Positions 27,001 through 39,000 of a DNA stretch of 64,000 nt are shown piece by piece (position 1 is the stretch's first letter; each line of letters opens with the position of its first letter). Origin of the DNA: Syntrophales bacterium (GTDB lineage Bacteria > Desulfobacterota > Syntrophia > Syntrophales > UBA2210); contig CAXXNF010000001.1 in NCBI GenBank assembly GCA_963666365.2, positions 896,001 through 960,000 of the forward strand, written 5' to 3'. A program made the position numbers.

Positions 27001-30000
27001 CAAGGCGACACCCCCTGCAGCCGTGTTATCGGTTGCTGGCAGGCGTCAATCCCGATCGAAACCTATCTGAAAGACATCTTTTCAGAAGAGCTGCTGCACC
27101 GCTATCGCAGCGAACCTCCCAAGGACAAGCTTGCCACCATATTCGAAGTCGTTGACTCTTTTAAAAAGAAGTCATACACTGGGGAGCATGGACCTTTTTG
27201 ACTATGGACTGGAAACACCGGCAAAAATAGCGGGGCCGCTGGCCGATCGCATGCGTCCGACATCGCTTGACGAATATGTGGGGCAAGCCCATTTGGTCGG
27301 CGACGAGGGACTTCTTCGCAGGGCGACCGACCGGGGCGAACGTTTCTCCATGATCTTCTGGGGACCGCCCGGGTGCGGGAAAACGACACTGGCCCGCATT
27401 ATCGCACAGGAAATGAAGTCCCACTTTGAGACGTTTTCGGCGGTTCTTTCTGGAGTAAAAGAAATACGGGCCGTCATCGACCGGGCGCAGGCACGGCAAC
27501 GATCTTCCCAAGACCCGACAGTGCTTTTTGTCGATGAGATTCACCGGTTCAACAAGGCACAACAGGATGCCTTTCTTCCACACGTGGAAAGTGGCCTCAT
27601 CACCCTGATCGGCGCCACGACGGAAAATCCCTCCTTTGAAGTAATTGCGCCTCTTCTTTCCCGGCTTCGCGTCCTGGTGCTTCAACCCCATAGCGAAACC
27701 GAATTGAAGACTATCGTAGTGCGGGCGCTTAACGATTCCGAGCGCGGCCTGGGAGGAAGAGGCCTTTCCCTCGATTCCGACGCGCTGGCCCACCTCATAC
27801 ACTCGGCCGACAGTGACGCCCGGACGGTCTTGAACAATCTTGAAATTGCCGCATCTCTCGCTGAAGCCGAAGGCGGGCAGGCAAAGCACATCACCCTGGA
27901 AAGTGCGGAAAAGGCGGTCCAGCGAAAGGCCTTGCGCTACGATAAATCGGGAGAAGAACATTACAATCTTATCTCGGCGCTCCATAAAAGTCTGCGGGGG
28001 AGTGATCCCGATGCCGCCCTCTACTGGTTGGGAAGGATGCTTGAAGCGGGAGAGGATCCGCTCTATATCGCGCGCAGAATGGTGCGGTTCGCATCCGAAG
28101 ACGTAGGGCTGGCGGACCCGGCTGCCCTCACACTTGCTCTCACTGCCATGAATGCCTATCGTTTTGTGGGTTCGCCAGAGGGGGATCTCGCTTTGGCCCA
28201 GGCCGCCGTCTATCTTGCTGTGGCCCCAAAAAGCAATGCGCTCTATCGTGGATTCGGCGCAGTAAAGGATCTTATACACCGTACAGGATCGCTTCCCGTT
28301 CCCCTGCATCTTCGCAACGCTCCCACATCGCTGATGAAAAATCTTGGATACGGGGCCGGGTATCAGTACGCCCACGATTACCCCGATGCCCTGGTAGACC
28401 AGAACCATCTGCCGGAACAGATTAAAGGTCAGACCTTCTATCACCCCAGCGACCGGGGTCGGGAAAAACTGATTAAAGAAAGATTATCGGCATGGAAGGC
28501 CTTTCGTGACCGGCCAAGGCAGAAAAAATAACAAAAAAGGAGGGGAGTGATCATGCATTACAATACTGCATTACGCACCTACGGAGCAAAACGGATTGAG
28601 GAGATTGAATCGGCCGATATACTCGTCGGGATACCCTGTTATAACAATGAAAAAACCATCGAGCATGTCATTCAGATGGTAACTCACGGATTGGCCAAAC
28701 ACTACAAGGATAAGCGAAGCATTATTTTTATTGCCGACGGGGGTTCCACCGACGATACGCGGGAAGTGGCAAAGGAGTTCCAGATAAAACCCTGGCAGGA
28801 AAAGGTTGTTTCCATATACCGGGGACCGGCGGGAAAGGGAACGGCGCTTCGCTCCATTTTCGAAGCCGCACATCGTCTCGACACAAAGGCCTGTGCCGTT
28901 GTCGACTCCGATCTCAGGAGCATCACTCCCGACTGGGTGGAACATCTTATTGCCCCCGTACTCGAAAAGAATTATCAATTTGTAGCGCCTGTATATGTCC
29001 GTCACAAGTATGACGGCACGATCACCAACAATATCGTCTACAACCTGACGCGGGCCCTTTACGGCAAAAGGGTACGACAGCCAATCGGAGGAGATTTCGC
29101 CCTTTCCAGGGACGTGGTGAAGTTCTACATAGACCAGGACGTGTGGGAAACCGATGTAGCCCGATTCGGCATTGACATCTGGATGACCACCAGCGCCATT
29201 ACCCGGAACTTCAGAATCTGTCAGTCGAACCTCGGGGTCAAGATTCATGACGCCAAGGATCCGGGGGTACATCTGGGTCCCATGTTTCGTCAAGTGTTGT
29301 GGACTGTGTTCTCCCTCATGGAACGACATGAGGAAATATGGAAAAATATACGAGGGAGCGAGCCACTGGAGACCTTCGGATTCGAAGGAGGCCAGGAACC
29401 GGAAACGGTTTCCGTCAATCTCGAAGGGATGATCGACAACTTTAAAATAGGCTACGGGCAGTTTTCCTCTCTCTGGTCCGAAATCTTCAGCGAAGACAGT
29501 TTTGAAGAGATAAAAAAGACCGCATCGTTAGATTCGTCATCCTTTCACGTATCAACCGAGGCTTGGGTGAAAATTCTTTACGAGCTTGCCGCCACCTTCC
29601 ATAAATGGGCAGTGAACCGCAATAAACTGATCGACCTGATGACCCCTCTCTATTACGCCCGTGTCGCCTCCTTCGTAAGACAGTCCTGGGATATGACATC
29701 GTCCCAGGCCGAAGCACTTGTGGAAGATCAGGCGCTGAAATTCGAAGATCAGAAAGACTATCTTTTCGAGGTATGGAATCGTGGAGTAAAATAAGGAGTT
29801 ATTTTCAACGAATGGACGCGTAAAATGATTTTTTCCACTTGAATCCTTGACTCCTGTCCATTGGAATCCTTATTTACACGAGCGGCCTTCCGCCGTTCAA
29901 CTTTTCATAGACGCCGATATATTGGGCGATCATGTTGCCGAGATCGTATTTCTGCCTCGTTTCCTTCATGATCCTCTTCAGTTGCGGAACCCGTACATCG

Positions 30001-36000: not shown

Positions 36001-39000
36001 AGAAACTGAGCGGCAAAATCGATCACTATCCCCCGCGCTCGTAAAACAGACTCCTTGTGTTCCACACAGTCGGGGATATTGCCGATATTAATGCCGTTAT
36101 GAAGAACCACCTGGGGACGCCGCCTGAGGAAATGGGTGGCTTCGCCGGCCGTGATGTCGCTGACCGTGGTAAAGCAGTCCGCCTCACGCGCCGTGGCAGT
36201 TTCCAGTGAATGCTTTGCGGTGACATTCATTTTTGCCGCCATTTCCGCAGGGGAAATGGCTTCGATATCGGTATAGATATCGACGCCGTTACCCGCAAGC
36301 GATCGGCCGAGCATGGTGGCGTGGGTGGTAAACACAGTGGCAATTTCAGGAATCTTTTTATTGATATAAAGCATGCCGGCGCCGGTCATCCATTCATGAA
36401 ACTGGGCGACCACCACATCGCCTTTCCTGGTAAGCCGCTCATAGAGGATCTCGATTATCTCGCCGGCAGCCGTGCTGAAGAGAACCGGTTCGATGTAATC
36501 CCAGCCTCCGGACATGGAATCCACACCATGCTCCTTCCAAAGCTGGTAGAGAAGCGCATCGACCTGATAGGCGTCGTTATGGTTCACCAGCACCACTCTC
36601 GGCGCCCCGGGGGCCTTATTCCAGCGGCCGCACCGGCAGATCAGGTTTTTCTGAATTGCCCGGTCCTTCACACCATTCCAGATGTCTTCATTAGTTTCCT
36701 CAAATTCAGGGTTGTCCCCCACATCGGGACCGATAAGCACATATTTGTCGCCGAAGCACTCGACGGCATGACCGGTCTTCGTTTTTAAAACCGTGTTAAT
36801 GCCGCCCACCTTGTTGCATACCTCCCAACTGACTTCGAAAAGGCAGTGTGCCGTAGATTGTTCATTCATAGTGTTTCAATTTCCCTTTATGGACATTGTT
36901 ATTGTCATATGTTGTTATTTTTGGCGTCCCTCTCTCTATACTGCCAATAGCCGATAAATCGCAACAACATCTTCGGCCGCCCGCCGCCGGCTGAGCACGG
37001 CCATATCTTCCCGGCAATTCCGGATAATCCGATTGCGCATATCGTCATTATAAAGTATTGCAAGACTCTCCGTCGCCCATGCATCGGTTTCCCAGTAATC
37101 GATCGCCGGGGCCCTTTTCAATATCTCGGTTACGCCGGACTGCCGTGAAAGTATCACAGGCACATCGCACATGACCGCTTCAAGTGCCGTGATACCGAAA
37201 GGCTCCGACAGGCTGGGCATCACATACAGGTCACTGGCGGCATAGATGCGCGCCACCTCGGGGCCATCGAGAAAACCGGTAAACCGCACATGATTCTCCA
37301 GGTTCAGTGAAACCGTTTTTTCCTTGAGATGGGCGGTCAGATCTCCATCCCCTGCAATGACAAATCGAATCTCGGGATCCATCTCCACTATGTGCCGGGC
37401 CATTTCAAGAAAATACCCGGGACCTTTCTGTGTTGTCAGCCTCCCGAAAAAAAGCACCTGTTTCCGGTCATTAGACCTGCGGGTTTCTTTTCCCCGTTCC
37501 ATGGCGGAGACGGCGTGGTACACTACTGATATTTTTTCGGGAGTGATGTCGTACTGCTCCACAATCTTTTTCTTCGTATAGGCACTCACGGCAATGATAT
37601 GGTCGGCGGTTTTCATGCCAAATCGCTCGATCCCGTACACCCGCTCATCAATGCGCAGAGGAGTTCTGTCCGATTCAAGTGAATGGACGTGCACGACCAG
37701 GGGGACGCCTCGCATCTCCTTTGCGGCAATTCCCGCAGGAACGGCCATCCAATCGTGCACATGAATAATGTCGAATTCTTCCTCCCTTGCAATGCTCCGG
37801 GCCCTTTCCGCGTATCGCGATACTTCCCGATAGATGTCTTCTCCGTATCGTTCCGCTGCAGGGATGCGCTGCACCGTCCCTTCAGCGGACCCTTTGTCGG
37901 TGCGGTAAGAACCATCGGTCATGTAGGGACCGAGCAGAACACCCACGGGCTTCGTGCGCATGATGCCCCTTTCCCCGTCCTTGCCGTCACAAGAGCCGAA
38001 GGAATCGGACCCACCGACTATGCGAAGTCCGTCCGTTTTTGCATCGATCGGCTCTCCCGGCATGACAAAGAGGATATCCATACCGGCATCGACAAGTCCT
38101 TTCGTCAACCCGTAACAGGCCGTCCCCAGCCCGCCGCTCGATGACGGTGCAAATTCCCATCCGAACATCAACACCCTCATACCCTGCACCTCTCGGAATC
38201 CCGCGCACAGGTCGCGAGAAGATCGCACCTGATGTGCGTTTCTTTATTAAGCCGCTCCCGTGTGTGAAGAAATGCCCCCCGAGGTCCGTGATGTGTCTGA
38301 TGAGGACAGGGAAACCAGCGGCCGTCCCTGAATATTCGACATTCCCACCGCCTTGAGGAATCGTTCCGTTACCCGTTCGGCCTTCTGTTTCCTTTGATCG
38401 GGAGACAGCCCCGAAAGGGTCACTTTTCCTCCCGCCGCCTTTTCATGCCCTCCGCCGACACCAATCCCCCTCAGGATTCTGAGCGCGATTTTTCCGGCCC
38501 ACCATCCGCGACGGGATGTTCTCACCGAAATTATCAACTCCTCTTTATACTCTCCCATCGTGAGGACCCACCGGATATTTTCCATCTTGAGCAGAAAATC
38601 GGCCATCTCGGCGGCTACGTCGGGATTATTGACCTTTCCGATATCTGAAATAATGACATCCTGATACTGCACTGCATTGTGAATGGCGTCGATGAATTTT
38701 ATATAATAGGATTTGGGCATGCGGGGGCTTTCGATCGCGGCAAGGGTGCGGGAAGAAATACGCGGAAAAAGATAGTTAAACGCGTCAAGATCCTGTTTCG
38801 TTGCGGAACGGCTCAACCACCCCGTATCCGTTTTTATCCCATAGACAAGCGCAGTGGCAAGTCTGCGGTCAGGCGCCAGCTCCAGTTCTCTCATATATTC
38901 CGTAAGAATAGTGGATGAACTTCCATAATCGGGGCGCACATCATAGAAGAGGCACCGCTTTGTCTCTTTTCTCAGAGGATGGTGATCGATCACAACATCG

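Follow-up and report, generated by a model that had tools for sequence, protein, structure and literature searches.

An open reading frame for a 1424-aa protein, P0001, lies in the 64,000-nt window analysed here (a stretch of contig CAXXNF010000001.1 of a Syntrophales bacterium), and it is best explained as an intact and typical member of the 'glycogen phosphorylase/synthase' (K16153-type) family, in which a GT3 glycogen synthase and a GT35 alpha-glucan phosphorylase are tethered in one polypeptide. To this reading, for which we infer both activities, the donor, the oligomer and the regulation, a probability of roughly 0.8 can be given. The genome-wide survey's note had described P0001 as a synthase joined to a complete phosphorylase, followed by a gene that joins a GH57 domain to a GT5-like domain (P0002), and the open reading frames, Pfam and NCBIfam bear out both descriptions (Table 1). 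The Pfam profile Glycogen_syn (PF05693; 355.3 bits, cut-off 27) matches P0001 in two stretches, the best at aa 12-342, and is followed by DUF3417 (aa 581-690) and Phosphorylase (aa 843-1193). The NCBIfam profile TIGR02094, alpha-glucan family phosphorylase, covers aa 677-1280 with 807.8 bits (cut-off 191.7). The profile of the Thermococcales maltodextrin phosphorylase, NF041129, reaches 793 bits over aa 580-1413, below its equivalog cut-off of 1500, and judged by this score P0001 is a relative of that enzyme, not an equivalog. Homologues of 1412-1452 aa cover 100% of the P0001 query.

Table 1. Position of P0001, its parts and its neighbours in the window (positions count from the first letter of the window)
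Feature	Position	Strand	Basis
P0001, fused GT3 glycogen synthase and GT35 alpha-glucan phosphorylase, 1424 aa	32595..36869	-	ORF, Pfam, NCBIfam, same-length homologues
P0001, GT3 glycogen-synthase half, aa 1-545	35235..36869	-	PF05693 and alignments
P0001, linker, about aa 546-568, unconserved, predicted disordered	35166..35234	-	alignment of 26 proteins, pLDDT
P0001, clade-2 alpha-glucan phosphorylase half, aa 569-1424	32595..35165	-	TIGR02094 and alignment to 9L6I
P0001, phosphorylase half: N-terminal helical DUF3417 part and C-terminal beta domain			
P0001, GT3 catalytic-site residues	E159 (36393-36395), R307, K313, E439 (35553-35555), E447	-	alignment
P0001, GT35 key residues	PLP Lys K1177 (33339-33341), H885, R1075, R1076, K1081, AMP-site R1151	-	alignment
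P0002, GH57 and GT5 GlgA-like, 900 aa, 18 nt downstream of P0001	29874..32576	-	
P0002, domains: GH57 about aa 1-400; GT5 GlgA-like about aa 420-900			
GT4 glycosyltransferase, 430 aa, 66 nt upstream of P0001	36936..38228	-	

The synthase half aligns with yeast Gsy2p, human GYS1 and C. elegans GS (GSY-1) at E-values of 1e-78 to 3e-82, and it shares with these eukaryotic GT3 synthases the GT-B core and the catalytic Glu, Arg and Lys residues. The equivalents of Gsy2p E169, R320, K326, E509 and E517, which we take to be active-site residues, are E159, R307, K313, E439 and E447, all of them kept. The eukaryote-type glucose-6-phosphate site and arginine cluster are not conserved in the alignment of P0001, where two of the six regulatory arginines, R510 and R514, are kept, while the other four and the equivalents of H286 and H500 are replaced; the residue at the His500 position is an aspartate, D430, that is invariant in all 26 fused proteins compared. 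The eukaryotic chains differ from P0001 also in the insert between the two aligned blocks, of 70-82 residues in those chains and 23-28 here, and in having a glycogenin partner, which P0001 lacks. As stated in part of a 2024 review, extra helices permit the tetramerisation of eukaryotic GT3 enzymes, and these synthases depend on a primer, whereas bacteria have no known homologue of glycogenin (PMC11046441). On the sugar donor the evidence is indirect: Prevotella bryantii is reported to have a UDP-glucose route (Lou et al., 1997, cited in PMC4432691).

The phosphorylase half aligns with the clade-2 glycogen phosphorylase of Segatella copri (ScGP; PDB 9L6I) from chain residue 10 to residue 850 of 852 (E 3e-191), that is over the entire half, including the C-terminal beta domain described for clade-2 phosphorylases in PMC12912991. 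When residue roles are taken from the same study, the PLP lysine (K1177 = Lys609), the phosphate- and glucan-binding residues H885 (= H316), R1075/R1076 (= R507/R508) and K1081 (= K513), and, at the AMP site, Y1080, E847 and R1151 (= R583) are all found in P0001; the position of the distal-site arginine R1151 is occupied by R in 15 and by K in 8 of the 26 fused proteins. ScGP differs in being a stand-alone protein of 852 aa with a 23-residue N-terminal loop, whereas P0001 bears the 545-aa synthase at that N-terminus. It is active alone and is inhibited by AMP, and it forms a pentamer and an AMP-induced decamer (PMC12912991). The catalytic residues of both halves had been left unchecked in the survey's note; all those now compared are present in P0001, and of 26 diverse fused proteins that are 34-46% identical to it, 23-26 keep them. 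Since both halves keep these residues, building and breaking of glycogen by one protein, as the note had proposed, is the best reading.

Between the anchors A540 and L588 the spacing varies from 43 to 60 residues across the 26 proteins, with no sequence conservation. In an AlphaFold model of aa 1-1200, for which 32 sequences were used, the mean pLDDT is 84.5, residues 553-575 fall below 50, and the pTM is 0.56, a low value that is compatible with a real interface between the halves in a model cut at residue 1200. The halves are connected by a probably flexible linker of about 25-35 residues, and its lack of conservation and the disorder in the model (pTM 0.56) favour a plain tether over a built-in direction switch.

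The length of the frame is not owed to the assembly. A contig of 13,024 nt from an independent metagenome assembly (run X4), which differs from the window in 269 letters, covers positions 29874-36869 unbroken, its single length change against the window being a 3-nt insertion that keeps the frame, and the linker region contains no stop codon. Within the order, the GT3 part was matched in 116 of the 151 Syntrophales genomes searched, and in 96 of them it lies inside an open frame of at least 1417 aa; elsewhere, 36 of 42 loci with both GT3 and GT35 are fused. A merging of two neighbouring genes by misassembly or frameshift might be argued from the low-depth contig of run X1, which carries 1-nt indels against the window at 31250 and 36709, and from the split neighbouring genes of Bacteroidaceae. 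However, the frame preserved in the 13-kb contig, the stop-free linker and the identical single frame in the 96 genomes and 36 loci leave this explanation a negligible probability, and the artefact is in practice ruled out.

The fused loci include those of Alistipes, Muribaculaceae, Dysgonomonas, Planctomycetota and Desulfovibrionaceae. The fusion is the usual form in Bacteroidales and occurs also in Bdellovibrionota, Chitinophaga and Sulfidibacter, and 25 of the best 150 cluster representatives (50% identity) measure 1394-1448 aa. The remaining 6 of the 42 loci, of the Bacteroidaceae/Tannerellaceae type, have GT3 and GT35 as two neighbouring genes. Bacteroides faecis, Phocaeicola vulgatus and their relatives encode the same two proteins in the order GT3 then GT35, 37-41% identical to the halves of P0001, but as two ORFs with a short gap between them. 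Since the six split loci form a single clade nested among fused Bacteroidota rows, their arrangement suggests a secondary fission, and it follows that the halves can function as separate proteins.

The architecture already has names. JGI product names on homologues read 'glycogen phosphorylase/synthase' and 'phosphorylase/glycogen(starch) synthase', and the entry K16153 is printed as 'glycogen phosphorylase/synthase [EC 2.4.1.1 2.4.1.11]' in PMC8307300, its number being listed also in PMC11093988; P0001 is linked to KEGG K16153 through this identical wording of the product names. The homologues so named have about 1400-1450 aa and the same Pfam set as P0001, with no known difference. Under the NCBI name of the same proteins, 'alpha-glucan family phosphorylase', the synthase half goes unseen, and the literature searches found no biochemical study or enzyme assay of any fused member. 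The survey's note had remarked that the 2024 review does not mention a synthase-phosphorylase fusion, and this holds for the portion of the review consulted, in which the fusions mentioned are TreS-Mak (Pep2) and GlgB-MalQ of Neisseria only (PMC11046441). In these, too, a single chain carries two steps of glucan metabolism that are consecutive or related, but they unite steps of the same direction, whereas P0001 unites opposing ones. Novelty of the architecture can nevertheless not be claimed, given the existing names and the wide spread of the fusion. Because the same fusion occurs in many bacteria of several phyla and has a database name, P0001 is an ordinary gene of an already catalogued family.

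P0001 is the sole GT3 and the sole GT35 protein found in the 4.0-Mb genome (94% complete), so that it would be the organism's glycogen synthase and glycogen phosphorylase. The GT3 half, of the eukaryote/Bacteroidota type, is expected to extend alpha-1,4 chain ends with glucose from an NDP-glucose donor, probably UDP-glucose, and the PLP-dependent clade-2 phosphorylase half, of the S. copri type, to take glucose off chain ends as glucose-1-phosphate. They would act alongside three further proteins found in the genome, a diverged GlgB-like GH13 branching enzyme, a GH133 debranching enzyme (GDE_C) and a small RmlA/AglF-like sugar-1-phosphate nucleotidyltransferase. In the same 94% complete genome no GlgC-type gene was found, in agreement with the survey's note (best match 23.9 bits), nor a GlgA above the cut-off, nor a canonical GalU. 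The fusion most likely serves as a tether that would hold both enzymes 1:1 on the same glycogen particle, with the phosphorylase part probably forming an oligomeric scaffold that binds glycogen. On this view, the direction of flux would depend on how each half responds to its substrates and effectors (NDP-glucose, Pi, AMP) and would need no special intramolecular mechanism, although the persistence of the fusion across phyla could point to a benefit beyond co-localisation.

The survey's note had gone further and proposed a flux-direction device, in which both active sites serve the same chain end and an intramolecular switch chooses between synthesis and breakdown, as an adaptation to existence at the energy limit. 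Judged by their residues, both halves seem able to catalyse, they make up the only synthase/phosphorylase pair found in the genome, and the residues that form the AMP site in the S. copri enzyme are retained; yet the linker shows neither conservation nor modelled order (pTM 0.56), the eukaryotic glucose-6-phosphate arginine cluster is not conserved, and one clade has split the gene and retained both halves, all of which makes such a device quite improbable. The view of it as suited to a syntroph is not supported by the distribution: the fusion is widespread among Bacteroidales of the gut and rumen, is the usual form in that order, and occurs in Planctomycetota, Chitinophaga, Bdellovibrionota, Sulfidibacter, Desulfovibrionaceae and others, and is therefore not tied to syntrophy. 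A related picture, in which the phosphorylase halves form an S. copri-like ring that grips the glycogen particle with one flexibly tethered GT3 head per subunit and adenylate at the conserved AMP sites switches between net synthesis and breakdown, is regarded as unlikely; were it true, a single-polypeptide glycogen rheostat would be common to at least 5 phyla.

The phosphorylase half might instead be mainly synthetic, making or holding short glucans from glucose-1-phosphate as primers for the primer-dependent GT3 half, so that the whole would be a two-donor synthase. The need of eukaryotic GT3 for a primer, the want of a known bacterial glycogenin and the failure to find a canonical GlgC or GalU in this genome would fit such a role, as would the reverse reaction catalysed by ScGP, whose reverse kcat is, however, described as far below that of known glycogen phosphorylases (PMC12912991). 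With no other phosphorylase found that could degrade glycogen, and with the GT4 and GT5-like neighbours as alternative primer makers, the proposal appears very doubtful. More improbable still is the idea that one of the halves has no catalytic role and serves to bind glucan or to regulate: loss of a catalytic residue does occur in this cluster, in the companion GH57 domain, but every catalytic residue compared in the two halves is kept in P0001 and in nearly all of the fused proteins (23-26 of 26).

For this window alone the weight of P0001 is small, as proteins of its kind are widespread and it is a standard one among them. The family itself may merit bench work: many Syntrophales, and abundant Bacteroidales of the gut and rumen such as Alistipes and Muribaculaceae, have it as their main glycogen synthase/phosphorylase, its synthase half is masked by the NCBI name, and the fusion passes unmentioned in the consulted portion of the 2024 review (PMC11046441). 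The recent structure of the S. copri phosphorylase, moreover, is a direct template for the question of how a synthase behaves when tethered to such a ring.

The neighbouring genes bear on the same pathway. In 22 of the 42 loci from other phyla, the flanks fetched around the GT3/GT35 gene contain a GT4 homologue. The bacterial GT3 pathway lacks assigned enzymes for priming and branching, and the conserved GT4 and GH57 neighbours are candidates for these steps. In P0002, GH57 is matched at aa 5-286 (E 3e-56; 191.3 bits, cut-off 21.2) and Glyco_transf_5 at aa 428-624, while the glgA profile TIGR02095 scores 116.3 bits over aa 428-893, below its cut-off of 328.45. The GH57 nucleophile position, aligned to E123 of 1K1W and E184 of 1UFA (a numbering that we assume for these references), is Ala145 (32142-32144, codon GCG) and not Glu, whereas 29 of 30 family members and 12 of 13 stand-alone homologues have Glu there; the proton-donor Asp is present as D238, aligned to D214 of 1K1W. 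By this alignment, the nucleophile Glu has been lost from the GH57 domain encoded in this genome. The GT5 part keeps K428, G430 and G431 of the K-x-G-G motif together with R706, K712 and E788, the equivalents of R300, K305 and E377 of the E. coli glycogen synthase, and each of these residues is found in 30 of 30 proteins.

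Four closely packed ORFs, separated by gaps of 18, 66 and 18 nt, occupy the minus strand of the window, and two of them encode glycogen enzymes: P0001, a GT3 glycogen synthase fused to a GT35 α-glucan phosphorylase, and its companion P0002. Pfam recognizes Glycogen_syn (GT3) in P0001 with 355 bits in two stretches, the best of which covers aa 12–342, followed by DUF3417 (581–690) and Phosphorylase (843–1193), and NCBIfam assigns the protein to TIGR02094 ("alpha-glucan family phosphorylase") with 807.8 bits vs. a cut-off of 191.7. A contig from metagenome run X4 (13,024 nt; 269 letters different from the window) spans 29874–36869 unbroken, with a 3-nt insertion as the sole length change over that range. 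Since this independent contig covers the region in one piece, the long frame of P0001 is no assembly accident. A near-identical contig of low depth from another metagenome run, X1, which may be that of the source sample, has an extra C and lacks a base relative to the window (positions 31250 and 36709), and either difference would disrupt a reading frame; the 13-kb X4 contig backs the frames of the window, and the X1 indels are read as contig errors. The joining of synthase and phosphorylase in one 1424-aa protein, as claimed in the genome-wide survey's note, was therefore borne out by Pfam, NCBIfam and the X4 contig. A scan for promoters and terminators between 29300 and 39800 gave counts no higher than chance.

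Features of the glycogen gene cluster, its surroundings and the related genes elsewhere (G000, genome of the window; L088, a locus handle)
Feature	Position	Strand	Basis
GT2 glycosyltransferase, converging on the cluster	28547-29794	+	best NCBIfam match glucosyl-3-phosphoglycerate synthase, 76.5 bits, cut-off 262
P0002, 900 aa	29874..32576	-	ORF listing
P0001, 1424 aa	32595..36869	-	ORF listing
GT4 ORF, 430 aa	36936..38228	-	ORF listing
DHH/DHHA1 phosphoesterase ORF, 367 aa	38247..39350	-	ORF listing
489-aa protein: CdaA-type transmembrane N-terminus, DAC diadenylate cyclase and YbbR	39631-41100	+	
GH133 (GDE_C) debranching enzyme and GlgB-like GH13	G000:C2:466611-467708 and L088:1099-3096	(-) given for L088	

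That note had left the catalytic residues of either half unchecked. Conservation was assessed in an alignment of P0001 with 25 fused cluster representatives, which are 34–46% identical to it, and each checked position of both halves is present in P0001 and kept in 23 to 26 of the 26 fused proteins. The GT3 half aligns to the glycogen synthases of Caenorhabditis elegans, human and yeast (E 3e-82 to 1e-78) and keeps E159, R307, K313, E439 and E447, the counterparts of Gsy2p E169, R320, K326, E509 and E517, which we take to be catalytic. The phosphorylase half aligns along its full length to ScGP, the glycogen phosphorylase of Segatella copri (PDB 9L6I; chain residues 10–850 of 852, E 3e-191). 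Descriptions of ScGP in PMC12912991 assign the PLP lysine to Lys609, substrate and product contacts to H316, R507, R508 and K513, a proximal AMP site to Y512, E278 and R508, and a distal AMP site, required for the AMP-induced decamer, to R583. The respective counterparts in P0001 (K1177, H885, R1075, R1076, K1081, Y1080, E847 and R1151) are all conserved; at the distal-site position, R1151 in P0001, 15 of the 26 fused proteins have Arg and 8 have Lys. The sequence evidence lends good support to the reading of P0001 as one protein that combines two glycogen enzymes of opposite action.

The synthase half differs from its eukaryotic relatives in several respects. While the helix of eukaryotic GT3 enzymes that senses G6P and phosphorylation has six Arg, P0001 has Arg at only two of these positions; the eukaryotic His500 is replaced by an Asp that is invariant in all 26 fused proteins, and the insert between the two GT3 lobes comprises 23–28 residues in contrast to 70–82 in the eukaryotic chains. 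The eukaryotic regulatory features are not kept in P0001. Tetramers of eukaryotic GT3 enzymes are attributed to extra helices in the 2024 review of prokaryotic α-glucan enzymes (PMC11046441).

The novelty that had been proposed for this architecture was not supported. A length-restricted search with the first 500 residues scored 7996 candidates (783–2492 aa), of which 6616 reached E ≤ 0.001; the best 120 of the 6616 all combine the Pfam families for GT3, DUF3417 and phosphorylase, and 119 of these 120 are 1408–1452 aa long. Many fused homologues bear JGI product names such as "phosphorylase/glycogen(starch) synthase" or "glycogen phosphorylase/synthase", the latter being the exact wording of KEGG K16153 [EC 2.4.1.1 2.4.1.11], a link that consists of matching names. 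The K16153 name is printed in a table of PMC8307300, and the entry stands among the α-glucan synthesis KOs given in PMC11093988. Among the best 150 representatives from the library with 50%-identity clusters, 25 have a length of 1394–1448 aa and match query residues 1–1200, down to 37% identity; named fused members include ones from Planctomycetota, a Bdellovibrionota bacterium, Chitinophaga filiformis and Sulfidibacter corallicola. Within the order of the window, a GT3 match was found in 116 of the 151 genomes searched, with an open frame of at least 1417 aa in 96; a further 13 near-full-length matches have shorter frames, some of which contain a TGA in frame, and seven genomes hold fragments only. 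The GT3-GT35 fusion is the normal arrangement in this order as well as in many Bacteroidales and is found across at least five phyla, so that its interpretation as a device suited to a syntroph was not upheld either. The window's own family has the GT3 gene in two of 11 other genomes, at 53–55% identity, and other families of the order show 63–69%; lateral movement of the cluster inside the order, or its loss from most of this family, may explain the pattern.

The fusion goes unmentioned in PMC10395257 and PMC8950772, and no publication on it was found in the searched literature, the reach of which excluded subscription journals, CAZy and KEGG. Since that literature yielded neither an enzyme assay nor a structure of any fused member, the family is of some value as a biochemical target.

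Fused and split arrangements were compared in the best-scoring 80 loci from other lineages, one genome being scanned per species. Both halves were present in 42 loci, the phosphorylase alone in 37, and one locus was cut after the GT3 part. A single frame holds both halves in 36 of the 42 (Alistipes, Rikenellaceae, Muribaculaceae, Dysgonomonas, Flavobacteriales, Planctomycetota, and Desulfovibrionaceae), and in the other six the halves are encoded side by side as separate genes, GT3 first and GT35 second (Bacteroides faecis, Phocaeicola vulgatus, a Bacteroidaceae MAG, a Tannerellaceae MAG and two others). On a quick, unrooted maximum-likelihood tree of the GT3 domain, drawn from these best-scoring loci (41 loci and the window; locus L032 was omitted for its short match), all six split rows fall into one clade (SH-aLRT 100) amid Bacteroidota rows with the fusion, so one change is enough to account for them. 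We infer that the split arose by secondary fission, if the root lies outside Bacteroidota.

How the two halves act together can be approached through the linker. Between two conserved anchors, A540 at the end of GT3 and L588 at the start of the phosphorylase, the 26 proteins have 43–60 residues without conserved sequence. An AlphaFold2 model of residues 1–1200, built on a shallow alignment of 32 sequences, folds both halves confidently (mean pLDDT 84.5); residues 553–575 fall below pLDDT 50 and pTM is only 0.56, hence the model predicts no fixed arrangement of one half relative to the other. This prediction, the existence of split versions and the activity of stand-alone ScGP, described in PMC12912991 as a pentamer wrapping glycogen particles, favour a model in which the fusion is a tether. 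Such a tether would guarantee equal amounts of synthase and phosphorylase and keep both on one glycogen particle, while each half would be controlled by its own substrates and effectors. A real interface between the halves is possible, given the cut chain and the shallow alignment of the model.

P0002 had been described as a GH57 domain joined to a GlgA-like one, and Pfam and NCBIfam agree: GH57 (Pfam, aa 5–286) is followed by a GlgA-like GT-B domain, which TIGR02095 matches over 428–893 with 116 bits, under its cut-off. When the GH57 domain is aligned by profile with GH57 enzymes of solved structure, the nucleophile (E123 of 1K1W, E184 of 1UFA) falls on residue 145 of P0002 and the proton donor on D238. 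Residue 145 is Ala (codon GCG, window 32142–32144), and its equivalent is Glu in 29 of 30 members of the GH57-GT5 family; among 13 stand-alone GH57 neighbours in other phyla, 12 likewise have Glu. Of two close relatives, P0294 (96% identical) also has Ala145 and P0295 (90% identical) has Glu. In this lineage, the loss of the nucleophile looks both real and recent, and the domain probably does not work as a retaining enzyme; beyond this variant the window adds nothing unusual to the fusion family. In the GT5-like half, all 30 members keep the K-x-G-G motif together with three residues (Arg, Lys, Glu) that align with R300, K305 and E377 of Escherichia coli glycogen synthase. The 900-aa join gave 654 matches at E ≤ 0.001, the best 120 of which are all 872–917 aa long with identical Pfam families; taxon names, where given, point to Syntrophales- or Deltaproteobacteria-like sources, save one labelled Proteobacteria. 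The GT5-like part turned up at none of the 80 other-lineage loci, and the join seems confined to Syntrophales-like genomes.

In the genome examined (4.0 Mb, 94% complete), P0001 is the only GT3 and only GT35 found, and the only GH57 is in P0002. Neither GlgC, whose absence had been reported before, nor GH77 was found in it, and GalU and GlgA gave nothing above cut-off; PF01704, the eukaryote-type UDP-glucose pyrophosphorylase, had zero matches, but neither did the control genomes give any, so this absence carries no weight. Present are a GH133 GDE_C debranching enzyme, a diverged GlgB-like GH13 (308 bits vs. a cut-off of 577), a 242-aa RmlA/AglF-like sugar-1-phosphate nucleotidyltransferase and a GlmU-like protein with the uridylyltransferase part only. 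Because of this inventory, the organism appears to have one complete GT3-type glycogen cycle with the fusion as its central enzyme. The combination of GH133 and GlgB-like GH13 without GH77, GlgC and canonical GlgA has a eukaryote/archaeon flavour. A UDP-glucose route to glycogen in Prevotella bryantii (Bacteroidota) is cited in PMC4432691, a review that also speaks of "glycogen cycling", the simultaneous making and degrading of glycogen, in several microbes.

Outside the window's order, GT3/GT35 is accompanied by a 430-aa GT4 in 22 of 42 loci and by a stand-alone GH57 of 400–550 aa in 25 of 42. The window shares that GT4 upstream of P0001; its closest solved relatives are MshA, BshA, GlgM and archaeal GlgA (61–73 bits). 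A conserved three-gene module with the order GT4 (~430 aa), GH57 (~400–550 aa), GT3-GT35 is present at loci L012, L013, L015, L017, L037 and others, common to Bacteroidota, a Planctomycetota MAG and a Desulfovibrionaceae MAG; both neighbours are absent from the fetched flanks of all six split loci. The GT2 and DHH genes were rejected as parts of the cluster, as neither had a tblastn match in the 80 loci. The DHH/DHHA1 phosphoesterase gene precedes the GT4 gene by only 18 nt and stands head to head with the DAC-YbbR gene, and the two look like a c-di-AMP hydrolase/synthase pair adjoining the glycogen genes.
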